Source: Minisyncoccota bacterium (GTDB lineage Bacteria; Patescibacteriota; Minisyncoccia; UBA6257). Taken from it: a stretch of DNA of 64,000 nt. The notes beneath the pieces are model-generated. The model made no database searches. It saw only the letters and a list, made by a program, of their open reading frames with translations, and was not told where the DNA came from. Below, one piece after another: positions 1,306-61,734 of this stretch (the stretch's first letter is position 1; each line of letters opens with the position of its first letter). Position numbers and translations under genes: made by a program. The DNA lies in assembly GCA_028694995.1 (NCBI GenBank), contig JAQVJU010000001.1:15314-79313 (forward strand). Direction: 5' to 3'.

Positions 1306-1613
1306 GCCGAGGTAGCTCAGTGGTAGAGCGTTTGCCTAAATCTTTGGGCCAATTCATAGTAATATGAATTGCAAACTGGGTGAAATCGGAAAAACCCAAG
1401 TATAATTTTGGGCAATTCCGAGCCAAGCCTATTTAAATTAAATTTAAACAGGAAGGTGTAGAGACTATCTTTTTTAAGAGTAGGGGCAAATAAATATTTG
1501 CTTCAAAGCGCCCAGCCCCTATAAATAGGGTGATGATATAGTCCAAACTCTAAAGTAATTTAGAGAATGTTCGGAAGAGCAAAGCGTCCGGTGTTCGATT
1601 CACCGCCTCGGCA
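1306..1613 (+). tRNA. tRNA-Phe (anticodon GAA) interrupted by a group I intron; exon 1 1306-1337, exon 2 1574-1613, no CCA encoded
   Basis: 5' half GCCGAGG-TA-GCTCAGTGGTAGAGC-G-TTTGC-CT and 3' half GAAGA-GCAAA-GCGTC-CGGTG-TTCGATT-CACCG-CCTCGGC-A form a complete cloverleaf only when joined; D-arm and variable loop resemble canonical bacterial tRNA-Phe. Confidence 0.7.
1338..1573 (+). ncRNA. group I self-splicing intron (236 nt) inserted between U33 and G34 of tRNA-Phe
   Basis: P1: exon GCCU pairs with intron GGGC, with the U.G wobble at the splice site. P10: intron UCUUU just 5' of the guide pairs with 3' exon GAAGA. P2 hairpin CAATTCATA/TATGAATTG. P7 strands GACUAU / AUAGUC lie within the conserved S-like element GAUAUAGUCC. 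Terminal G at 1573. Confidence 0.7.
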
Positions 1614-38547: not shown

Positions 38548-38892
38548 ATGAAAAATAAAGCTGTCTTGTTAATAATTATTTTTATTAGCTTGGTTTGTTT
38601 AAATGGGTGCTACTGTTGTGGTCCCTGTATTACCTGTCCGTCACCTACCCCTAAATGTAGTTTGACTGTTATTGCCACGTATACCAGTAATGTATACGGA
38701 TATGTATACATTAATAATCAAAATACTGGCAAATATATCGATTTCGAATACTCCCCGAGTATTCGATTCGAAAATCTGCCATGCAACCAGATGGTTAAAG
38801 TATACGTAGTAGATAGCGGCCCATGCTTTTCGCATGTGCAGCATATCTACTTAAATCCTGGTGGTAATACTTTGTATTTTACATATTGGTAG
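38548..38892 (+). CDS. small Cys-rich secreted lipoprotein (114 aa), GC-elevated codons
   Basis: Signal peptide with lipobox LNG-C; mature part has CYCCGPCITCPSPTPKC and three further Cys. Confidence 0.5.
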   Translation: MKNKAVLLIIIFISLVCLNGCYCCGPCITCPSPTPKCSLTVIATYTSNVYGYVYINNQNTGKYIDFEYSPSIRFENLPCNQMVKVYVVDSGPCFSHVQHIYLNPGGNTLYFTYW

Positions 38893-39071: not shown

Positions 39072-40139
39072 ATGTTAAAAAGAATAAAAAATTGGTTTTG
39101 GCCTACAAAAGAGAATAATTTTCATCCTGGTATTTTAAGTGATCGGGCTATTTCCATATTTATTCTTTTGTTTTTATTAGTCAAGGTTATCTTTAGTTTT
39201 AATCTTATTTTAGTAAAACAATCCTCTCTTTTTGCTGATGTAAGCGCTCAGGAGATTTTTCAATTAACTAATGATATTAGAAAACAAAGTGGTTTAACAC
39301 CAGTTTTAGAAAATTCTTTATTAAATCAAGCTGCGAGATATAAAGCTGAAGATATGTTGCAACATTCTTATTTTAGTCATTTCAGCCCTGCGGGAATTTC
39401 CCCTTGGTTTTGGATAGAAAAAGCTGGATATGATTATTATTATGCCGGAGAGAATTTAGCAATGAATTTTTTAGATAGCGAAGAAGTTGTTAAAGGCTGG
39501 TTTAATTCTCCTCGTCATCGAGATAATCTCTTAAATAAAAACTATCAGGAAATGGGTATTGCTGTTATCTCTGGTGATTTTAATAAAGAAGGAATTAATA
39601 GAATCTTAGTGGTTCAATTATTTGGCGCTAAAAAACACCAACCTTCAACACCAATAGCTTTAGCACAAGAACCAGAAACAACCCCAGAAAAAGAAACTGT
39701 CATTCCCTCAGAACAACATATAGAAGAATCTTTTGAGCAAACCCCTAGTGAAGTTTTATCTGAACAGGAACAACCAACTACTGAACCAACTGAGATTGCA
39801 TCAAGTAAGCCAACCATTCCTATAGAAACTACTCAAGAAGAAAGTCTTGTTCAACCTGAGCCAGAAATACCAGTGGCAACAGTATTATTAGAACAACAAA
39901 ACATTTTAAATAAAATAAACAACAATACTAGAAACCAAGTAGATATTATTAATAAAATTATCGCTGTTTTCATAATCTCTTTTGGTTTAATAATACTGTT
40001 TGGTATTGTTTTACAAAGACAATCTATTGATATTGGTATTTCTGAATTAGTTCTTAGAAGCTTTATTGTTATTATTTTAGGAATTTCATTTTTCACTTTT
40101 CAATTAGAAAGCATTATTGGAAACTTAATGATTTATTAA
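39072..40139 (+). CDS. CAP/SCP (PR-1-like, YkwD-type) domain protein with acidic linker and C-terminal TM helices
   Basis: NQAARYKAEDMLQHSYFSHFSP...GENLAMNF...VKGWFNSPRHRDNLLNKNYQEMGIAV matches the CAP domain pattern. Confidence 0.6.
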   Translation: MLKRIKNWFWPTKENNFHPGILSDRAISIFILLFLLVKVIFSFNLILVKQSSLFADVSAQEIFQLTNDIRKQSGLTPVLENSLLNQAARYKAEDMLQHSYFSHFSPAGISPWFWIEKAGYDYYYAGENLAMNFLDSEEVVKGWFNSPRHRDNLLNKNYQEMGIAVISGDFNKEGINRILVVQLFGAKKHQPSTPIALAQEPETTPEKETVIPSEQHIEESFEQTPSEVLSEQEQPTTEPTEIASSKPTIPIETTQEESLVQPEPEIPVATVLLEQQNILNKINNNTRNQVDIINKIIAVFIISFGLIILFGIVLQRQSIDIGISELVLRSFIVIILGISFFTFQLESIIGNLMIY

Positions 40140-40141
40140 AG

Positions 40142-40858
40142 ATGACTACTGATGTAAAAATTTCATTGTTTGCTTTTTTATTTCTCTTTTTGGGTCTTTT
40201 TTTTATATTCAATGGCAGCGCTTTTCCTACCTGGTTTAATTACAAATTTCAAGAAATAACCCATCTTTTCCAAAGCGAATTATTCCGTTCTCCAAAATTC
40301 CTGACTAAAATCCCTGTAGTTGAAAAAGATGGATTAAATTCTAATGTTCTTTTTCCTTTTTTTTCTCCAACTGAAACAGGAAATGTAGTTTTACCGCCTA
40401 TTCCTGAAGAGGCAAATGAAACAAATATTATTGAATTACCAAAATTCAATATTAAAGCCCCAATCATTACTGTAAAAACTCCTGATTTGGATTTAATTTA
40501 CAAAGAGCTTAAAAAAGGAGTGGTGCTTTATCCAGGATCAACTAATCCTAAACAAGGTTATTCTATTATTATCGGTCATAGCTCCCAATATCCATGGGAA
40601 AAAGGTAATTATAAATCAGTTTTTTCTTTATTAAATGAATTGGATATTGGTGACCAAATCTATATTTTTTGGGAGCAACAACCTTTAGTTTTTGAATTTG
40701 CAGATAAGAAAATTTTTATCCCCTGGCCTAAAGGCTCAGAGACCACAGAAACAATCTTTCCCCCAAGCAATGAGGAAACAATTCTTATTCTTCAAAGTTG
40801 CTGGCCGGTGGGTGTAGCCTCAAAGCGAGTTGCGGTAAAGCTGGTTCTTGTGAAATAA
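40142..40858 (+). CDS. sortase-family transpeptidase (putative)
   Basis: N-terminal TM; His (IIGHSSQ), Cys in LILQSCWPVG (TLxTC-like) and downstream Arg (SKRVAVK) with the spacing of the sortase catalytic triad. Confidence 0.5.
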   Translation: MTTDVKISLFAFLFLFLGLFFIFNGSAFPTWFNYKFQEITHLFQSELFRSPKFLTKIPVVEKDGLNSNVLFPFFSPTETGNVVLPPIPEEANETNIIELPKFNIKAPIITVKTPDLDLIYKELKKGVVLYPGSTNPKQGYSIIIGHSSQYPWEKGNYKSVFSLLNELDIGDQIYIFWEQQPLVFEFADKKIFIPWPKGSETTETIFPPSNEETILILQSCWPVGVASKRVAVKLVLVK

Positions 40859-45568: not shown

Positions 45569-45916
45569 TTAGAAACCTGTAATACTTACACCTAAGAAAT
45601 TAGCCACTAGGTAAATTAATACCTTAGCCAATAAAGCTATTCCTACTCCTATCAAAGCATAAACCAAAGAGTTTAATGCTTTTTTGGCTTTTTCTGCATC
45701 TCCAGCTGCTGTTATATATTGCCAACCTGCAAAAACTATCATAATCGCTGCTAGAAAAAGCACAATATTAAAAAACCAATTCAAAACTTTTGTTAATATT
45801 ACCCAGATATCAGTTAATCCTCCAGATGTTCCTGGGGGGATAGTTGCTGGCTGACCAAAACAAGGCAAAGCAATAAAAAAGCTTAAAAGTAAAACTGGGA
45901 CGATATATTTTTCCAT
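45569..45916 (-). CDS. small secreted helical-hairpin protein, paralog A (VirB2/TrbC-pilin-like architecture)
   Basis: Signal peptide (..ALPCFGQ), then two hydrophobic helices joined by a charged loop: IVFAGWQYITAAGDAEKAKKALNSLVYALIGVGIALLA. Confidence 0.5.
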   Translation of the reverse strand: MEKYIVPVLLLSFFIALPCFGQPATIPPGTSGGLTDIWVILTKVLNWFFNIVLFLAAIMIVFAGWQYITAAGDAEKAKKALNSLVYALIGVGIALLAKVLIYLVANFLGVSITGF

Positions 45917-46033
45917 TTTGTTTATTGAAATTAATTATATTCGACCTTTAAAAATTATAACAAATTTTAAGCAAATACTCAATAAAAATGATGCTAATTA
46001 ATAATACAATCATGTATTCTTAAGATAGTTTTT

Positions 46034-46417
46034 TTATTTACCTACTTCACTCATTTCGTTTATTGTATTGTTTCCTATTGTTAAATCAACTTCAAGAACA
46101 TTTTCAATTACTTTAGTTATTGCGCTTGCCATTAAAACTACACCAATTCCTACTAAAGCCCAAATTAAAGTCTTTTGAGCTGTTTCTATCTTTTGCTGAT
46201 TTCCAGCAGAAGTCATATATAAATAACCTGCATAAACAATGAGTATTGCACTTACTATTACAGCCAAACTCTTTAAGAAATTAATTATAGCTTCTATTAA
46301 ACTGGTAATGGTTGTAATTTCTTTAAAGGGATTTTTAAATGCAAAATCTTGCCCTAATGCTGGTAAAGCTATTAAGAAAATTGTTAATAGACTAATTATA
46401 AAAATAAGATTTTTCAT
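46034..46417 (-). CDS. small secreted helical-hairpin protein, paralog B
   Basis: Signal peptide (..ALPALGQ); core ILIVYAGYLYMTSAGNQQKIETAQKTLIWALVGIGVVLMA aligns with paralogs A and C. Confidence 0.5.
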   Translation of the reverse strand: MKNLIFIISLLTIFLIALPALGQDFAFKNPFKEITTITSLIEAIINFLKSLAVIVSAILIVYAGYLYMTSAGNQQKIETAQKTLIWALVGIGVVLMASAITKVIENVLEVDLTIGNNTINEMSEVGK

Positions 46418-46436
46418 TTTGTTAAGTTAATTAAGA

Positions 46437-47276
46437 TTAATGAATATACGAAGGGATACAATAAACAAAAGCCTTGCCTTGTGGCTGCTTTGTTGCTGTG
46501 TTTTCAAAAGTACAAGTCCAACCAGTTTTTGTACTCTCTGATTGCAAAATCTCAGTTGTAGAATCTAAGGCAAAACAAAAACCTTCTTTTAAATAATAAT
46601 AATTTGGTTCACAATAAGCTGTTCCAAAAGCCTGCTTGCAATCTGCTTCCATATAGTCATAACAATAGATTGACTCTTCTGCCCATTTACCATAGCTAGC
46701 TACATCCCAATATTTTTGCTCTATTTCAGTTTTCCTGCTTTGTATTTGTTCCTCAAGACTGGGGGTGGGAGGAAGATTGCTGTCAGAATTAGAGGAAGAA
46801 AAGCTTGGCGGTTGTGAAGATTGAGGAGGTTGTGGGGATTGTGGCTTCACCTCTTCGCATTCAATTTTCCACCAAGTGCCAGTATAATACTCTGGGTCAA
46901 GTTCTCCTGTGAAATTAATAAGAAACCAGAATATTGTATTAACAATTACCCAAGCAGCTAAAATAATTATTAGCCCCATGATAGCATTGTAAATTGTTTT
47001 TTGTCCTGTTCTGATATTCTCTTCTTTACCTGCTGAAAAAATCCAAAGAAACCCTCCATAAACTATTAAAATAACAATAATTAAGAAAGCTATTTCTATG
47101 GCAAAATACACTACATTTTGAGCTAATTGTAATAGATGACAGATATTACATTCTGGTTCTGAAGGCCCTCCACAAGGAACTAATCCAGCTGCCTGAACAA
47201 ACAAAGGAAAACAATAAAAACCAATCATTAAGAAAAAGATAATTAATTTCTGAGTTATTTTGTTTGTATTTTTCAT
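46437..47276 (-). CDS. paralog C: helical-hairpin module fused to a Pro/Gln/Ser linker and a Cys-rich C-terminal ectodomain (279 aa)
   Basis: Core ILIVYGGFLWIFSAGKEENIRTGQKTIYNAIMGLIIILAA; linker PQSPQPPQSSQPPSFSSSNSDS; C-terminal domain with about 8 Cys. Confidence 0.5.
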   Translation of the reverse strand: MKNTNKITQKLIIFFLMIGFYCFPLFVQAAGLVPCGGPSEPECNICHLLQLAQNVVYFAIEIAFLIIVILIVYGGFLWIFSAGKEENIRTGQKTIYNAIMGLIIILAAWVIVNTIFWFLINFTGELDPEYYTGTWWKIECEEVKPQSPQPPQSSQPPSFSSSNSDSNLPPTPSLEEQIQSRKTEIEQKYWDVASYGKWAEESIYCYDYMEADCKQAFGTAYCEPNYYYLKEGFCFALDSTTEILQSESTKTGWTCTFENTATKQPQGKAFVYCIPSYIH

Positions 47277-54217: not shown

Positions 54218-55228
54218 TTATTTTTTAATTAATCCCATTTTTTCTTTAACTTCCTGGATTGTCTGTTTTGCTATTTGAGAAGCGTATTTTCTGCCTTGTT
54301 CTAAAATTCTATTAACTAATGCTGGTCTTTTTTCATAAAATTTCCTTCTTTCTTGAATTGGTTTTAATTCTTCATATATTGCCTTAGCTAACTCTTCTTT
54401 TAATAACTTATACTGAATTCCTTGATTGCTAAGATAAAGTTTTTCATATTCTAATCTTTTTTTCTTTCCTTCAAATAATTCCACAAAAGTTAATAAAGCA
54501 AAAACCCCTCCTTTGTCAGGTATTTTTTTACCTTTGCCAATATCAGTTGGCACTTTAGTTAATTTATCTTTAATAACTTTTAAACTATCTACTAGGTTAA
54601 TATAGCTACCTTCTTTTGATTTTGACATCTTGCCTTGTCCAGTTAAAGAAGGGATATTGGCCAAAGGCATAAAATATGCCTTTGGTTCAGGAAAAGTCTG
54701 TCCAAAATGACGATTAAATGTTCTGGCTATTTCTCTAGTAACTTCTAGATGTGGTGACTGATCTTTACCCACAGGCACAAACTGAGTTTTGTAAAGTAAA
54801 ATATCAGCAGCCATTAAAACAGGATAATAAAAAAGCCCCATATTAATGTATTTTGGCTGTTCTTGTTTTTTTTCTTTATAGGTTGGCAATTGCTCCAAAC
54901 GAGAAACTGGATAAATAGTACTTAAGAGATAAGCTAATTCAGTATGCTCTGGCACTTGTGATTGAATCAAGAAATGGCATTTTTTAGGATCTAGGCCACA
55001 AGCTAAATAATCCAGAACTACTTTATCTATCTGTTCTTGAAATTTTTTGGGATTATAAGGAGAAGTAATCCCATGAAGGTCAACTATAGAATAAATACAA
55101 TCATAATCTTTTTTATTTTGCAGTTCCAAATATCCTTTTACTCCACCTAAATAATTACCCAAATGAAGAAATCCAGTTGGCCGAGTACCAGAGAAAACCC
55201 TAACTTTTGTTTTATTTTTTAAACTCAT
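54218..55228 (-). CDS. trpS: tryptophan--tRNA ligase (start trimmed to clear tRNA-Gly)
   Basis: FSGTRPTGFLHLGNYLG (HIGH-type) and GKMSKSK (KMSKS). Confidence 0.85.
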   Translation of the reverse strand: MSLKNKTKVRVFSGTRPTGFLHLGNYLGGVKGYLELQNKKDYDCIYSIVDLHGITSPYNPKKFQEQIDKVVLDYLACGLDPKKCHFLIQSQVPEHTELAYLLSTIYPVSRLEQLPTYKEKKQEQPKYINMGLFYYPVLMAADILLYKTQFVPVGKDQSPHLEVTREIARTFNRHFGQTFPEPKAYFMPLANIPSLTGQGKMSKSKEGSYINLVDSLKVIKDKLTKVPTDIGKGKKIPDKGGVFALLTFVELFEGKKKRLEYEKLYLSNQGIQYKLLKEELAKAIYEELKPIQERRKFYEKRPALVNRILEQGRKYASQIAKQTIQEVKEKMGLIKK

Positions 55229-55251
55229 TCTTTTGAAAATTAAGATAGTTG

Positions 55252-55325
55252 TGGAGCGGGTAACGGGATTCGAACCCGTGCCTGAACCTTGGAAGGGTTC
55301 CATACTACCACTATACTATACCCGC
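55252..55325 (-). tRNA. tRNA-Gly (anticodon UCC), CCA encoded
   Basis: Reverse complement GCGGGTA-TA-GTATAGTGGTAGTAT-G-GAACC-CTTCCAA-GGTTC-AGGC-ACGGG-TTCGAAT-CCCGT-TACCCGC-TCCA. Confidence 0.85.
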
Positions 55326-55606
55326 AAAAAAGAAGATCTTAAACAGATCTCTTTTTATATTTTAACTCTTTTTTATCTAAAAATCAATTTGATTATGCAA
55401 TCTCTCTTGGTCTTAATGAGTGAAAACAAGAAAGTCTTTATCTGTTTAATATTCATTGACATACATTAAAGTTTGTGATAACTTTTATTTGCTTTAATAT
55501 ATTAATCATTAAAACTTCTTGACATTTCTTTTGTTTTGTGATAATATTAGATTATAATATTTTTAACTTTAATACAATTTAATTTTAAAATAAATTGAAT
55601 AAAAAC

Positions 55607-57526
55607 ATGACAATAATTAATTCACAAAAAATGAAAAAAACTTTAATCTTTTCCCTTTTATTAAGCGGAATTTTATTATTTAATATAATGCCTTTTTTTG
55701 CTGAGGCAGCTATTTTAGTTACTGGCACTAGAGAAAGCCATGATGCTAGTTATGTCTCAGTAGCCGTAGTTGATAGACCTCCTCATTGCGCTGATTGCAC
55801 CACAACTACTACTCGACCGCCTCACTGCACCACTACTACCACTACTAGACCTCCGCATTGCACCACTACTACCACTACTAGTACTACCAGGCCTCCTTAT
55901 TGCCAAACTTATAACTGTAATATTAATACTTGGCAATGCGTTGAAGCTCCATGTGGCACAGGACAATATTCTTCATTAACTAGTTGCCAAGCTAATTGCA
56001 AAGCTCCAATCACTCGTTACTCTTGCAATACAAACACTTGGCAATGTGTTGTTAATCCTTATGGACCATATACTTCTTTAAGTTCTTGCCAAACTAATTG
56101 TATATCTCCAATCACTCGTTATTCTTGTAATACTAATACTTGGCAATGTGTTATTGATTCTGTTGGACCATACACTTCTTTATCTACATGTCAGGCTAAC
56201 TGTAAAGCCCCAATAACTCGTTATTCTTGTAATACAAATACTTGGCAATGCTATCAAGATACTTATGGGCCATATACTTCTTTAAATTCTTGTCAAAATG
56301 ATTGTAAAGCTCCAGTAACCCGATATTCTTGTAATACAAATACTTGGCAATGCTATCAAGATACTTATGGGCCATATACTTCTTTAAATTCTTGTCAAAA
56401 TGATTGCCAATCTTCTGTTATTTCTCTTAATGTTTCTTGTTATGCCTCACCTAGCTCAGCACAAACTTATCAAACTATCACTTTTTACAGTAATGTTTCT
56501 GGAGGAACAGGAAATTATTCCTATTCTTGGTCTGGTTCAGCTTCTGGCAATCAATCTTATTCTCAAAGAAGCTTTAGCAACCCAGGCTCTTATACAGCCT
56601 TTTTAACTGTTTATGATTCACAAGGCAGAAGCGCCAATACTTCTTGTAGCACCTATGTTAGCAGTGGCAGTAATCAATGCCCTAATCCTCCAACCATAAA
56701 TCTTTGGGCTGACAAATACAGTGTTCAACAAGGGGAAACAACTTATCTTCGCTGGACTTCTAGTAATGCCAATTATTGTGTTGCCTCAAATGGCTGGAGC
56801 AATAACAAATCAACAAGCGGCATTGAAACAATCAGTCCAATTAGCAATACAACATATACCTTAACTTGTTATGGATATGGTAATTGTGGTTCTATATCTC
56901 AATCAGTTACTATTTACACTGCAACAACTCAAACTGGTTTAAATCTTACAAAATTAGGACGCAATCTCTCTGGTGGCAGTAGAGTTTATTCAAAGGTCAT
57001 TCAAGTATTAGAAAATGACATTATTGAATTCCATCTTACAGTGAGTGCCGGCAATAATGTTGATTTATATAATGTGATTGTTAAAGATCCATTACCTTCA
57101 GTTCTTACTTATATGCCTGGGACTACAAAAATAGGAGGGGTTACTCAACCCGATACTATTACTACAACTGGTTTATCTCTTGGTACTATTTATCAAAACA
57201 CTAGCAAGGTCATTACTTTTCAAGCTAGAAGTGGTCCTTCTTCTGTGTATTTAAGTCATACTAATACTGCTGAAGCAACAGCTAATAATCAAAACAAAGT
57301 AACAGATAGCGCAACTGTCACCTATGGATTAGTTGCTGGAGCCGCTACAGTAAAAACAGGTGTTAATAATTCATTGTTAATATCTTTTACTCTGAGCTTA
57401 ATGATTGCTTTTGCCATCTGGTGTTATCTTCGATTTAATCCTAGTGGGCAATTAGCTTTAGCAACTATAGAAAGAAAAACCCGTGATTCTTATCTTGCCC
57501 TTGCTCGTTATCGTAATCGTAAATAA
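55607..57526 (+). CDS. large repeat-containing cell-surface protein (about 640 aa; likely true start 55631, MKKTLIFSLLL..AEAA signal peptide), C-terminal TM anchor
   Basis: Signal peptide; Thr-rich TTTTTRPPHC x3; about 5.5 tandem 34-aa Cys modules (ITRYSCNTNTWQCV..YGPYTSLSSCQ.NC.AP); beta-rich C-terminal region; hydrophobic C-terminus LLISFTLSLMIAFAIWCYL. Confidence 0.55.
   Translation: MTIINSQKMKKTLIFSLLLSGILLFNIMPFFAEAAILVTGTRESHDASYVSVAVVDRPPHCADCTTTTTRPPHCTTTTTTRPPHCTTTTTTSTTRPPYCQTYNCNINTWQCVEAPCGTGQYSSLTSCQANCKAPITRYSCNTNTWQCVVNPYGPYTSLSSCQTNCISPITRYSCNTNTWQCVIDSVGPYTSLSTCQANCKAPITRYSCNTNTWQCYQDTYGPYTSLNSCQNDCKAPVTRYSCNTNTWQCYQDTYGPYTSLNSCQNDCQSSVISLNVSCYASPSSAQTYQTITFYSNVSGGTGNYSYSWSGSASGNQSYSQRSFSNPGSYTAFLTVYDSQGRSANTSCSTYVSSGSNQCPNPPTINLWADKYSVQQGETTYLRWTSSNANYCVASNGWSNNKSTSGIETISPISNTTYTLTCYGYGNCGSISQSVTIYTATTQTGLNLTKLGRNLSGGSRVYSKVIQVLENDIIEFHLTVSAGNNVDLYNVIVKDPLPSVLTYMPGTTKIGGVTQPDTITTTGLSLGTIYQNTSKVITFQARSGPSSVYLSHTNTAEATANNQNKVTDSATVTYGLVAGAATVKTGVNNSLLISFTLSLMIAFAIWCYLRFNPSGQLALATIERKTRDSYLALARYRNRK
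55896..56410 (+). repeat. in-frame tandem 102-bp (34-codon) repeats; the last two copies are nearly identical (82 bp perfectly identical)
   Basis: ATTCTTGTAATACAAATACTTGGCAATGCTATCAAGATACTTATGGGCCATATACTTCTTTAAATTCTTGTCAAAATGATTG occurs at 56223 and again at 56325. Confidence 0.8.
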
Positions 57527-57547
57527 ACAAGAAAATCAGGAATAATT

Positions 57548-57575
57548 AAAACCACCCTTAAATGAGGGTGGTTTT
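57548..57575. terminator. rho-independent terminator of the surface-protein gene (abuts the tRNA-His 3' end)
   Basis: AAACCACCC-TTAAATGA-GGGTGGTTTT. Confidence 0.75.
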
Positions 57576-57576
57576 A

Positions 57577-57660
57577 ATTTACAAAGGGTGACCAGAGGGA
57601 TTTGAACCCTCGCTGGCAGTTCCACAGACTGCCGTGCTAACCAACTACACCATGGCCACC
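57577..57660 (-). tRNA. tRNA-His (anticodon GUG) with genomically encoded G-1, no CCA encoded
   Basis: Reverse complement G-GTGGCCA-TG-GTGTAGTTGGTTAGCAC-G-GCAGT-CTGTGGA-ACTGC-CAGC-GAGGG-TTCAAAT-CCCTC-TGGTCAC-C (G-1 pairs with C73). Confidence 0.85.
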
Positions 57661-59210: not shown

Positions 59211-60800
59211 TTAAGCAAACATTAGTAATTCAGGTTTAAAAATCATCAAAATTCCAATAAGGAGCATTAAAATTCCTCCAATTAAATAGGAAAGTCGCGT
59301 GTATTTATTTGTCAAACCAGTTACTTTTAAAGTTAACATGGCGCCTATAAAAACAATTAAATCATCGAGCATGAAAATAAAGATATACAATAACATGTAA
59401 GAATAATATTGCCAGTTAGTTAAATTGCTTAAAGCCAAAGTTTGGGTAAATACAACTGGAAAACCAATTGAACAAACTAATTCTATCAAATTAACCATGC
59501 CCGCTAAAAGAATAATACCTATCAAGGACAAGATTAAAGATTTCTTATGAACAATTGATTTTACTTTATCTAGAATAGATTTTTTTTGTTCAACATTGGT
59601 CGCCTTGCAAGCAGCATCTGGATTAATAAAATAATCTCTTAAATTGTAAATACCACTACTAATGGCTACTAATCCTATTAATAATCTAATCCAGAAAATA
59701 AACCCAAGGAAAAGAATTAAGTTCAGCCAAGCTGCCATAAAAAGAAAGTAGACAAAGGCTGAAGCAATAATAAAAGTAAAGCCCAAGATCCACATTTTCT
59801 TTCTATCCTTAATTTTAATCAGAAAACTGATTAAAAAAACTAACACCCACATTGCGCAAGGATTAAACCCATCAAGCCCGCCTAAAACAATAGATAGAAC
59901 TGGCAAAGAAAGATCTTTTGTTTTTACTTCACCTATTAAAGGGATTTTAATCTTATCTGGTAGTGGTTTTTCTTTGGTTGATTCTCCAAAATGAGTAAAA
60001 CGAGTGATAATACTTTCTACTAAATCAGGACATTCTTGTTCTATATAGCATTTTATTGATTCTTCTATCATCTTACCTGAAACTTCTTCATTGTGCCAAC
60101 CTATTATAATTTTTTCTCCAATTACCAATAAAGGTAAATCTGGATTCTGGATACCAAACTCCTCTATTATTTGTTTTAATATTTCAGCGTTTTTAGTCTG
60201 AGTAGTATTAAGATAAACAATATTAAGATTAGGGTATTTGTCTTTAGTTTCATCTAAATAATTTTTCTCTTGGGCACATAATGGACAACCATCAGTCCAA
60301 AAAAGATAAGCTTTGATTTCTTCTTGATTGACTAAAGTGGTTGTTGTGGTGCTTGTGGGTGGAGTTTGTTGTGTGGTCATAGTTGTTTGATCAGAAAAAA
60401 GCATGGCTTTAATTGAATCTGAACAAACATTATTCAAACAATTCAAAACCAACTCTTCTATCTGTTGGCCCGTGGTTTCATCTTGGTGATAACCAATCAA
60501 AGGTTCATCATTTATTATCATTATGGGCACACCAGGAATATCTATCTCTAGTTTTTCTCCTATCTCAATTAATAAATCACGATTTGCTTTGTTGTTATAA
60601 ATCTCAAAACTATAAACCTTAAGAGAAGGATATTTTGATTCCAAAGACTTTAAAAATAATTCCTCTTGAGCACAATGAGGACAGCCCTGACCCCAGAAGA
60701 AATAAAGATTAATTTCATCTTCCTGGGCAAAAGAATTTTTAGCAACGCAGCCAAAAATTATAACAAGACCAATTAAGCCTAATAAAAAATATTTTTTCAT
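59211..60800 (-). CDS. fusion protein: two thioredoxin-fold (CxxC) domains + CcdA/DsbD-like transmembrane disulfide-transfer domain
   Basis: Signal peptide; WGQGCPHCAQE and WTDGCPLCAQE active sites separated by a Thr-rich linker; C-terminal polytopic domain with GLDGFNPCAMWVL motif. Confidence 0.55.
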   Translation of the reverse strand: MKKYFLLGLIGLVIIFGCVAKNSFAQEDEINLYFFWGQGCPHCAQEELFLKSLESKYPSLKVYSFEIYNNKANRDLLIEIGEKLEIDIPGVPIMIINDEPLIGYHQDETTGQQIEELVLNCLNNVCSDSIKAMLFSDQTTMTTQQTPPTSTTTTTLVNQEEIKAYLFWTDGCPLCAQEKNYLDETKDKYPNLNIVYLNTTQTKNAEILKQIIEEFGIQNPDLPLLVIGEKIIIGWHNEEVSGKMIEESIKCYIEQECPDLVESIITRFTHFGESTKEKPLPDKIKIPLIGEVKTKDLSLPVLSIVLGGLDGFNPCAMWVLVFLISFLIKIKDRKKMWILGFTFIIASAFVYFLFMAAWLNLILFLGFIFWIRLLIGLVAISSGIYNLRDYFINPDAACKATNVEQKKSILDKVKSIVHKKSLILSLIGIILLAGMVNLIELVCSIGFPVVFTQTLALSNLTNWQYYSYMLLYIFIFMLDDLIVFIGAMLTLKVTGLTNKYTRLSYLIGGILMLLIGILMIFKPELLMFA

Positions 60801-60810
60801 TATCTTTAAA

Positions 60811-61734
60811 TTAATTATTCAATTCTTTGATATATGAATAGGCAGAAAGGGCAGCTGAGGCGCCTTGGCCAACAGCAACAACAATTTGCTTAAAAGGAAA
60901 ATCACAAACATCACCAGCAACAAAAATCCCTTTATGAGAAGTTTCCATGGTTTTTAAATTACTCATAATTTCCCTTTTTTCATTTAAATCAATGAATCCT
61001 TTTACAAACTCTGTATTTGGCATAACACCAATTTGAATAAAGCAACCAGCTGTTTCTATTTCATGAATTTTTTTTGTCTTTCGTTCCTGATAAACAATTT
61101 TTTTTAATTCTCCATCCCCTTCAAAACTTAAAACTTCTGCATTAGTGATTATTTGAATTCTTGATTGATTTTCTATTTCTTCTTTTAAGATCTCATCACA
61201 AGTTAAATGATCCAAGTATTCTAATAAATAAATTTCTGAAGCAAATTTTAAAAGGCTAATTGCTGCTTCAGCTCCAGTGTTTCCGCCGCCAATTACTGCT
61301 ACTTTTTTATTTTCAAAAGCCTTTTCATCGCAAGTAAGGCAATAAGAAATTCCTTTTCCTATAAACCTCTCTTCATTTTTAATGTTTAATCTTTTTAATT
61401 CTGCGCCTGTGGCAATAATTATTGCTAGACTATTATATTCTTTTTCTTTAGTCTTCAACTTAAAACCAACTTTCAATTTTTCTATCTTAATAACTTCTTC
61501 ATAATTCTGTATGGTTATTTCATTTTGAACCAAATGATTATGAAATAATTTTAATAAATCCCTACCATTGATTTTTGGAAAACCAGGATAGTTTTCTATT
61601 CTCCAAGACAAGCCAACTTGACCTAAAAACTCTTTAGTAATTAATAATGTTTTTAACTTTTTCCGGGAAGCATAAATACCCGCGGTAATTCCAGCTGGAC
61701 CACCACCTAGAATAATTAAATCATATTGTGCCAT
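60811..61734 (-). CDS. trxB: thioredoxin-disulfide reductase-like FAD/NAD(P) oxidoreductase
   Basis: FAD motif IILGGGPAGITAGIYA, redox-active CLTCDE, NAD motif VAVIGGGNTGAEAA. Confidence 0.7.
   Translation of the reverse strand: MAQYDLIILGGGPAGITAGIYASRKKLKTLLITKEFLGQVGLSWRIENYPGFPKINGRDLLKLFHNHLVQNEITIQNYEEVIKIEKLKVGFKLKTKEKEYNSLAIIIATGAELKRLNIKNEERFIGKGISYCLTCDEKAFENKKVAVIGGGNTGAEAAISLLKFASEIYLLEYLDHLTCDEILKEEIENQSRIQIITNAEVLSFEGDGELKKIVYQERKTKKIHEIETAGCFIQIGVMPNTEFVKGFIDLNEKREIMSNLKTMETSHKGIFVAGDVCDFPFKQIVVAVGQGASAALSAYSYIKELNN

Follow-up and report, generated by a model that had tools for sequence, protein, structure and literature searches.

The gene at positions 55607..57526 of the window (the whole 64,000-nucleotide stretch of DNA that was analyzed) encodes a 639-amino-acid (aa) protein, which we interpret, with moderate confidence, as a sortase-linked fibrillar adhesin of Paceibacteria (CPR/Patescibacteria) with a multivalent, probably glycan-binding tip. 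From the N- to the C-terminus, the protein was predicted to consist of a signal peptide, a Thr/Pro/His/Cys linker, five disulfide modules, two PKD-like Ig domains, one CLIPPER/DUF11 domain, an A-A-T-[VI]-x-T-G motif, a transmembrane (TM) helix, and a basic helix, an architecture that supported the initial annotation of a repeat-built secreted surface protein with a C-terminal anchor. The CDS begins with the ATG at 55607 and, like its parts, the promoter and terminator candidates, and the two genes of the sortase pair described below, lies on the forward (+) strand; two public contigs carry a gene call for the identical protein, and the reading frame covers 55595..57526 if counted from an alternative TTG start at 55595. 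Purifying selection was found in every region of the protein, with a pN/pS of 0.13 in the modules. The 211 homologues are named Paceibacterota, Minisyncoccia or Parcubacteria, and precomputed PF01345 matches are present on most of them.

The predicted signal peptide (aa 1–34; 55607..55708) contains a hydrophobic helix at aa 11–25 followed by AEA|A, with cleavage probably occurring after AEA, and thus provides the N-terminal secretion signal seen in sortase substrates; a conserved A-[AS]-I-[IL]-V-T-G motif comes next. The linker (aa 35–98; 55709..55900) was predicted to be disordered, with pLDDT values below 50 for aa 25–97. The three T5-6RPPHC copies described earlier are all present in the translation, to which an additional RPPYC variant has to be added. 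Tandem Repeats Finder resolved this region into a 33-bp repeat of 2.8 copies at 55794–55881, and the number of linker units varies between alleles.

Module 1 (aa 99–134; 55901..56008) is a divergent 36-aa variant with six Cys, and modules 2–5 (aa 135–270; 56009..56416) are four 34-aa units that start at 56009, 56111, 56213, and 56315 and have the Cys spacing C-x6-C-x13-C-x3-C. The earlier description of about 5.5 tandem 34-aa modules with four Cys each has to be revised to this extent, but its total of about 22 Cys agreed with the 22 counted in the modules, out of 33 in the whole protein. At the DNA level, the array was detected as a 102-bp period with 4.4 copies at 55961–56406 (Tandem Repeats Finder score of 514). 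A structure prediction of one module gave a beta-hairpin and an alpha-helix with a pLDDT of 90, and this fold was predicted for each of modules 2–5. All four Cys are retained in 631 of 633 module instances, and correlated Cys loss in the other two led to the predicted disulfide pairing of C1–C4 and C2–C3. Conservation of the module exceeds the four cysteines, as Y4, N7, T10, G19, and Y21 are also kept.

The 34-aa module matched none of the families in Pfam, NCBIfam or the PDB, so that the modules are not trivially explained by a well-characterized domain, a possibility raised in the initial annotation. It is present in 545 representative protein clusters, and its hosts include cellulases, beta-glucanases, and giant-virus and protist proteins. 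On glycoside hydrolases, it is placed C-terminal to GH7, between GH6 and GH45, and after GH16, and in P0242 it adjoins a true CBM1; it also occurs on a Paceibacteria prepilin-type (pilin-like) protein, on proteases, and on many proteins without any other domain. The module family is unannotated, widely spread, and extracellular. Like CBM1 and other small disulfide-rich CBMs, the module has a length of ~30–36 aa, four Cys (two disulfides), and aromatic as well as polar residues that are conserved; it is joined by Thr/Pro-rich linkers, as CBM1 is, takes up positions on GH7, GH6, and GH45 that CBM1 also occupies, and co-occurs with a true CBM1 in P0242. CBM1 (PF00734) membership was nevertheless rejected, because the CBM_1 HMM did not match the target, though the same library detects CBM_1 in P0242, and because the predicted fold contains an alpha-helix, in contrast to the all-beta wedge of CBM1. 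The Cys spacing also differs, being approximately x10/x5/x9 in CBM1 and x6/x13/x3 in the module.

The C-terminal stalk, described earlier as beta-rich, is predicted to form three beta-sandwich domains, which at finer resolution are two PKD-like Ig domains and one CLIPPER (DUF11) domain. The first Ig-like domain (aa 271–355; 56417..56671) contains a conserved Cys278/Cys347 pair, and the second (aa 356–442; 56672..56932) contains invariant Cys391/Cys421. The term “PKD-like” is used as a description only, because the fold is Ig-like but the PKD profiles (PF18911/PF00801) were not matched above threshold, with PKD_4 reaching 18.3 bits versus a cutoff of 27. Matches of the Ig region to PKD and Ig-like domains in PDB sequences were weak only, and Foldseek returned generic tandem Ig-like structural matches for the stalk. 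An S-layer protein was considered and rejected, since the Foldseek matches to SbsB and EA1 reflect a generic tandem Ig arrangement and the protein carries a TM/sorting tail of its own. In the putatively CnaA-like CLIPPER stalk domain (aa 443–575; 56933..57331), DUF11 profiles scored above their curated cutoffs, marginally for PF01345 (24.9 versus 24.6 bits) and more clearly for TIGR01451 (34.9 versus 24 bits), DUF11 being one of the models that the initial annotation had proposed for HMM searches of the C-terminal region. The AF2 model shows an all-beta domain at aa 445–573 with a pLDDT of ~80–90. A PDB profile search with the CLIPPER region found nothing and did not reach 9IFR. Only some CLIPPER domains have an intramolecular Lys–Asn isopeptide bond with a catalytic Asp or Glu. 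The candidate isopeptide triad here is K449/E474 (or D494)/N553, with K449 and E474 each conserved in 59 of 60 sequences and D494 and N553 in all 60, and K449/E474/N553 correspond in position to K715/D748/N806 in the domain solved in the work defining the CLIPPER (DUF11) domain (PMC12617251).

The C-terminal region comprises the candidate sortase recognition motif A-A-T-V-K-T-G (aa 579–585; 57341..57361), a predicted TM helix (aa 589–610; 57371..57436), and a conserved basic cytoplasmic helix (aa 611–639; 57437..57523) that was predicted to be continuous. The motif sits in a flexible linker of low pLDDT, four residues before the TM helix, and has the invariant residues G578, A579, T581, T584, and G585 with a variable x position (R35, K24, Q18, A9, V8, E5, N2, and S1). 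Relative to LPxTG, L is replaced by T/A and P by V/I in TVKTG, and so the reported absence of LPxTG holds for the strict motif, but an LPxTG-like A-A-T-[VI]-x-T-G is invariant in the family and sortase orthologues adjoin family members. The hydrophobic helix and basic tail typical of sortase substrates are both present, the tail being unusually long and conserved (F610, N611, G614, E622, K624, R626, L630, and R634), and this is the only ORF in the window with the motif, a TM helix, and a basic tail. No sorting-signal HMM (TIGR01167-type and all others) matched the tail, a tail-only profile search of a 5.8-billion-protein database reduced 201 seed candidates to four short fragments, and a literature search for sorting signals of CPR sortases found nothing relevant.

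The sortase-like gene noted earlier at 40142..40858 encodes a genuine sortase domain (Pfam, 45.8 bits versus a cutoff of 26.6) with His/Cys/Arg catalytic positions, and it is the candidate processing enzyme. It is the single sortase of the genome, fits no curated class, lies 15 kb from the adhesin gene, and is conserved as a pair with the gene for a CAP/YkwD-like membrane protein (39072..40139). Sortase orthologues (46–61% identity) lie at most two genes away from a family member in L008, L009, L011, and L012, and in L012 the surrounding genes differ. The linkage is seen in several genomes but is not universal: a family member is near the sortase in five of the 28 species-level sortase loci and in only about one third of the informative loci, and the positive loci are partly interrelated. 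The recurrence of this adjacency in several divergent genomes suggested that the tail is probably a non-canonical sortase signal.

Modules 4 and 5 are identical at 94 of 102 nt. The period of 102 bp given in the initial annotation was confirmed, but the exactly identical run is 83 nt (56222–56304 and 56324–56406) and not 82. A very recent duplication of 102 bp, proposed on this basis, was contradicted by a 97.9%-identical strain that already has five modules, with only 87 of 102 nt identical between its modules 4 and 5; moreover, all nine in-tract differences between the window and that strain are homogenizing. On these two grounds, the close match between modules 4 and 5 reflects gene conversion rather than a new duplication event. 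Among strains 91–100% identical in the flanks, whose alleles all come from short-read metagenome assemblies prone to repeat collapse or chimeras (the source samples include JGI 3300014206, Ga0265294, ERZ27250894, and ERZ27247361), the module number was 5, 4, or 3, and it ranges from 0 to 11 across the Paceibacteria family (>200 proteins); the repeat number is thus polymorphic rather than fixed, as had been anticipated. A 4-module contig, otherwise 100% identical to the window, carries a precise 102-bp deletion within the 83-nt shared tract, and two further alleles with three modules, one of them mosaic, each contain different modules. Unequal crossing-over and gene conversion among the 102-bp units alter the number and the order of the modules. 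The likening of this gene to phase-variable adhesins was not upheld, because the repeat units (102 and 33 nt) lie within the CDS and are multiples of three, and the observed alleles are all in frame. On/off switching by simple sequence repeats was accordingly rejected, as the variation is one of size only.

We considered it quite unlikely that errors of assembly, by repeat collapse or chimeric joins, produced the copy-number and mosaic alleles at an actually stable locus. The short-read origin of every allele would allow this, and the 4-module contig, whose only difference is one unit missing within a perfect repeat of 83 nt, has a typical signature of collapse; however, a 3-module allele was recovered in two different assemblies (L004 and L005), the mosaic allele L003 holds a segment of 235 nt that matches neither parent type exactly, the module content differs between the two 3-module alleles, the conversion tract is present in three independent contigs (the window, L001, and L002) versus L006 and L007, and the family-wide range of module numbers also speaks against it. 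A plain type-I membrane protein is possible, if on the whole doubtful, as an account of the C-terminus. The TM helix would then be permanent, the basic helix would have a cytoplasmic or interface function in partner binding, clustering or signalling, the xTG would be a domain–membrane junction, and the sortase would act elsewhere. Family-wide sequence conservation of a ~30-aa tail forming a predicted continuous helix would not usually be expected of a sortase signal that is discarded, and the lack of a match to any sorting-signal model, the distance of the sortase here, and its absence from most of the surveyed family and sortase neighborhoods are all consistent with such a protein. On the other hand, an invariant T..TG in which x is free, set in a flexible linker just ahead of the TM helix and accompanied by a basic tail, has the logic of a sortase signal, the adjacency to an orthologous sortase recurs even in a rearranged context, and no other class of ORF with a sorting-type signal, and hence no alternative substrate candidate, was found among the 301 ORFs around sortases.

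As for the tip, the module family occupies CBM-typical positions on glycoside hydrolases, and this domain-context association suggested that the array most likely forms a tip that binds its ligand multivalently, the ligand probably being a glycan. The modules might instead be inert structural spacers, rigid and protease-resistant beads like EGF-type repeats whose number sets length only, with any ligand binding due to other parts, such as the linker or Ig domains. This would agree with the existence of family members with no modules (22 of 120), with the presence of modules on many unrelated proteins, proteases included, and with purifying selection that shows no sign of diversifying change, but we regard it as unlikely, given that the modules lie at the distal tip and not in the membrane-proximal stalk, that five residues are conserved besides the four cysteines, and that the GH7, GH6–GH45, GH16, and pilin-like placements are typical of binding modules. 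Miniature Kunitz-type protease inhibitors, shielding the epibiont surface from host proteases, appeared very improbable. The best PDB sequence match of the module is indeed a Kunitz-type tick anticoagulant peptide, and the module resembles Kunitz/BPTI in having a beta-hairpin and then a C-terminal helix, pinned by disulfides, and a ...Y.S...C...C ending similar to the Kunitz C-terminus. However, that match is not significant (E = 0.12), the module is half the size (34 versus ~55 aa) with four rather than six Cys, neither the N-terminal segment nor the protease-binding loop is present, its cysteines in the match do not fall in the register of the Kunitz disulfide partners, and Pfam gave no Kunitz_BPTI (PF00014) match on the target protein. 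A Kunitz/BPTI identity was rejected, as Cys number, size, and register all disagree.

For the sortase-linked adhesin that we favor, the protein would be exported via its Sec signal peptide, and about 16 disulfides would form outside the cell. The C-terminal TM helix would hold the protein, the preceding A-A-T-[VI]-x-T-G motif would be recognized, most likely by the sortase at 40142..40858, and cleavage between T584 and G585 would be followed by transfer to the cell wall. The three beta-sandwich domains, with the CLIPPER domain possibly locked by an isopeptide bond, would project the distal part, namely the flexible Thr/Pro linker and the five ~34-aa two-disulfide beta-beta-alpha mini-domains, away from the cell, where the tip may attach the bacterium to a partner cell or to a substrate. 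Recombination between the 102-bp units would alter reach and valency with the frame intact. A more far-reaching combination, which we put forward only tentatively, is that the module represents a new carbohydrate-binding mini-domain family, common to CPR bacteria, giant viruses, and protists, that replaces CBM1 on GH7, GH6, and GH45; that the tail is a CPR-specific signal for a new class of sortase encoded in a conserved CAP–sortase pair; and that the protein is a host-attachment adhesin of a Paceibacteria epibiont whose valency is tuned by module recombination.

In Gram-positive surface proteins of the alpha C/Rib and Esp/SasG types, long in-frame and nearly identical DNA repeats correspond to whole folded units, and the copy number changes between strains by recombination. 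The gene described here likewise has in-frame DNA repeats that encode folded units with a strain-variable copy number, whereas its units are much smaller (34 aa), disulfide-bonded, and found in a CPR bacterium. The protein also resembles the sortase-anchored fibrillar adhesins with CLIPPER (DUF11)/CnaA stalks (PMC12617251) in its signal peptide, its distal putative binding region, its Ig-like stalk including a CLIPPER domain with a Lys/acid/Asn triad, and its C-terminal motif, hydrophobic helix, and basic tail, together with a sortase in the genome. It differs from them in having one CLIPPER domain and not a long tandem stalk, a motif of A-A-T-[VI]-x-T-G and not LPxTG, a long and conserved tail, a sortase without a curated class, a CPR host, and a tip built from an unannotated mini-domain.

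CPR/Patescibacteria are mostly uncultured epibionts, and to our knowledge how they recognize and hold their partners is largely unknown. The gene supplies a candidate CPR adhesin family of defined architecture, as well as a candidate non-canonical sortase signal for which a candidate enzyme has been identified. That the module is spread over cellulases, beta-glucanases, a CPR pilin-like protein, and proteins of giant viruses and protists points to a new family of very small ligand-binding, possibly carbohydrate-binding, domains, and the strain series (five, four, and three modules, a mosaic, and a conversion tract) is a natural example of repeat-mediated surface-protein remodeling in a reduced genome.

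A candidate sigma-70-like promoter (TTGACA-17-TAATAT with an upstream TG; 55519..55547) lies ~60 nt 5′ of the start codon and agrees with the consensus at 10 of 12 positions, a consensus match only, as such sites were no more frequent in the region than in shuffles. The strong terminator reported earlier downstream of the gene corresponds to an intrinsic-terminator-like hairpin with a 16-bp stem (57544..57579; dG of −22.2 kcal/mol, z = −5.1), located 3′ of the stop codon. A double-thioredoxin membrane protein encoded further downstream (59211–60800) might take part in the oxidative folding of the modules. Short antisense and out-of-frame ORFs are also present within the repeats and are by-products of repeat composition.

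The open reading frame at 55607–57526 (+) is real; an identical 639-aa protein was called on two public contigs. Comparison with a 97.9%-identical strain revealed purifying selection on every region of the gene (pN/pS 0.00–0.48; 0.13 for the modules). Its homologues bear the names Candidatus Paceibacterota, Minisyncoccia or Parcubacteria, so that the source organism is a CPR/Patescibacteria bacterium; the contigs related to the window originate from anaerobic-digester-type metagenomes, and the window has a G+C content of ~31% and is dense in tRNA genes. The translation shows RPPHC-type units followed by five Cys modules (m1–m5), and Tandem Repeats Finder detected repeats with periods of 102 bp (4.4 copies, score 514) and 33 bp (2.8 copies). 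Modules m4 and m5 are identical at 94 of 102 nt, with an exact run of 83 nt. A promoter-like site lies 5' of the gene and a strong hairpin 3' of it. The initial annotation had described this ORF with its repeats, modules, m4/m5 near-identity and 3' terminator, and its description was borne out with small numerical corrections.

The repeat array was compared among strain contigs. Five modules were found in loci with flanks 99.4% identical to the window (L001 and L002), which encode the same protein, and in loci with 97.9% flank identity (L006 and L007), where m4 and m5 match at only 87 of 102 nt. Orthologous modules of different strains are more alike (96–99 of 102 nt) than m4 and m5 inside one strain; all six differences between the window and L006 in m5 (positions 49–78) carry the m4 state, and three differences in m4 carry the m5 state. 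For these reasons, the near-identity of m4 and m5 is a tract of gene conversion, laid down in an array that had five modules before the strains split, rather than the “very recent” duplication initially proposed. Across the family of Paceibacteria homologues, the module count varies from 0 to 11. Two loci with about 91–92% flank identity (L004 and L005) carry three modules: m1, an m2/3-like unit and an m4/5-like unit. In a locus with flanks 100% identical (L044; 0 mismatches in 2,472 nt), which has four modules, the sole difference from the window is a precise 102-bp deletion with its junction within the 83-nt tract common to m4 and m5. The L003 allele (ERZ27247361 k141_1763006, 409–2145), with three modules (m1, an m4-like unit and an m5-like unit), is a mosaic: gene nt 1–440 and the intergenic region before them belong to the L004 (91%-lineage) type, nt 441–675 form a unique 235-nt stretch of the array that is identical to neither type, and nt 676–1737 (1062 nt), together with 7.4 kb of downstream sequence, belong to the window type (99–100% identical). 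Either strains recombined within the array to give this mosaic, or the assembly joined several strains into a chimera; because every strain contig was assembled from short reads, individual alleles may be collapsed or chimeric. Repeat remodelling among strains is well documented by these data and merits follow-up.

An AlphaFold2 model built from 60 homologues (mean pLDDT 72.8) comprised a signal-peptide helix (aa 11–25), a disordered Thr/Pro/His/Cys linker (aa 25–97), five beta-beta-alpha modules (aa 101–266; pLDDT about 80–86), three beta-sandwiches (aa 275–352, 363–439 and 445–573), a low-confidence linker containing AATVKTG (aa 576–587), a TM helix (aa 589–610) and a C-terminal helix (aa 612–638). 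Foldseek matches were generic tandem Ig-like proteins. The first sandwich is only PKD-like, as its PKD score fell under the Pfam cutoff. The third is DUF11 by both Pfam and NCBIfam, now named CLIPPER, a CnaA-like stalk domain in fibrillar adhesins, often with a Lys–Asn isopeptide bond (PMC12617251). Such a bond is plausible here, because K449, E474, D494 and N553, conserved in 59–60 of 60 sequences, correspond in position to K715/D748/N806 in the CLIPPER domain of solved structure. We infer that the protein is a fibrillar adhesin, probably anchored by a sortase. In many family members (P0001–P0047), a conserved A-[AS]-I-[IL]-V-T-G motif (55700–55726; aa 32–40) comes directly after the signal peptide and is sometimes repeated as WGIIVTG/D.

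The module matched no family in Pfam, NCBIfam or PDB. Its consensus from 392 instances in the homologues is xTRYsCNTsT[YW]QCyq...G.YtSL..C...Cq.P, with C-x6-C-x13-C-x3-C spacing, and a single module modelled with 112 diverse instances (pLDDT 90) is predicted to form a beta-hairpin (residues 4–7 and 12–15) and a helix (24–30). All four Cys are kept in 631 of 633 complete instances; the other two each lack both Cys2 and Cys3, which weakly suggests C1–C4 and C2–C3 pairing. An exhaustive profile search placed the module in 545 representative clusters, where one protein may have as many as about 30 copies, with carriers including Paceibacteria, a deltaproteobacterium, a choanoflagellate, MMETSP protists and Aureococcus; the closest viral models were uncharacterised giant-virus proteins (TM about 0.7, 28–41% identity). 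The module is positioned C-terminal to GH7 (P0236), between GH6 and GH45 (P0188), after GH16 (P0222) and beside a genuine CBM1 (P0242), and S8 and C1 proteases also carry it. Such positions are those expected of small binding modules, and the ligand would probably be carbohydrate. A Paceibacteria prepilin-type (N_methyl) protein (P0122/P0293, MDD3434804.1) has five copies at its C-terminus, and the module is therefore displayed on both pilin-like and sortase-type surface proteins. As an unannotated disulfide mini-domain that spans kingdoms and is placed like a CBM, the module merits follow-up. Other Paceibacteria carriers (P0115, P0117, P0127, P0137, P0138, P0152, P0155, P0173, P0176, P0181, P0221 and P0228) terminate in another conserved tail, NLPWW[RQ]EIIPvLpGFLRGiwr, possibly a second CPR signal for C-terminal anchoring or sorting, as yet undescribed.

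The C-terminus of every family member consists of GLVAGAAT[VI]xTG[AP], ~20 hydrophobic residues and WYYLKFNPKGQL...E.K.RD..L...R, a tail that no known sorting-signal model matched; x varies freely (R, K, Q, A, V, E, N or S), as it does in LPxTG. The ORF at 40142–40858 (+) encodes a genuine sortase (Pfam, 45.8 bits; under every NCBIfam class cutoff) with the conserved residues GHS...LILQSCWPVG...KR[VI]AV. It is paired with a CAP/YkwD-like membrane protein (the pair spanning 39072–40858 (+)), an arrangement conserved across Paceibacteria, within a CAP-sortase-TsaD-aaRS-PrsW block at 39–45 kb, 15 kb from the family gene. In three divergent relatives (L008, L009 and L011), the family gene divergently adjoins the CAP-sortase pair; in L012 it directly adjoins the sortase in another gene context (family protein 37% identical), in L010 and L015 it adjoins CAP alone, and two loci were uninformative or negative. 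A signal-bearing ORF occurred in 5 of 28 species-level sortase loci, or in 4–5 of the ~12 with enough upstream DNA; all five encode CLIPPER-family proteins, and among the 301 ORFs around the surveyed sortases the signal occurred in no other ORF class. The protein is thus, on balance, probably a substrate of this sortase via a non-canonical signal, although the long, conserved tail leaves its TM helix as a permanent anchor a live alternative. The candidate CPR-specific pair of sorting signal and sortase merits follow-up.

Upstream of the CAP-sortase pair, a 114-aa ORF (38548–38892 (+)) has a lipoprotein-like signal and nine Cys (LNGCYCCGPCITCPSP...) and matched no family. Three small secreted/membrane ORFs at 45569–47276 (-), adjoining a solute-binding protein gene, correspond to the T4SS_pilin (PF18895) genes of the L008, L009 and L011 syntenic blocks. 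A redox cluster at 59211–61734 (-), with glutaredoxin beyond, is syntenic in all strains; it holds a 528-aa secreted/membrane protein with two thioredoxin-fold regions (CxxC; weak matches to the thiol-disulfide oxidoreductases TrbB, DsbE, ResA and StoA), a thioredoxin-reductase-like flavoprotein and the glutaredoxin, and is a candidate for the machinery that forms or isomerises the surface protein's ~16 extracellular disulfides. A Group I catalytic intron (Rfam RF00028, 99.6 bits, full-length model match) at 1328–1565 (+) is followed by a 266-aa ORF (1654–2454). The longest Trp-tRNA synthetase ORF (54218–55303 (-)) overlaps tRNA-Gly (55252–55325 (-)), so its true start is probably an internal Met; the gene call in a related strain is 336 aa versus 361 aa.
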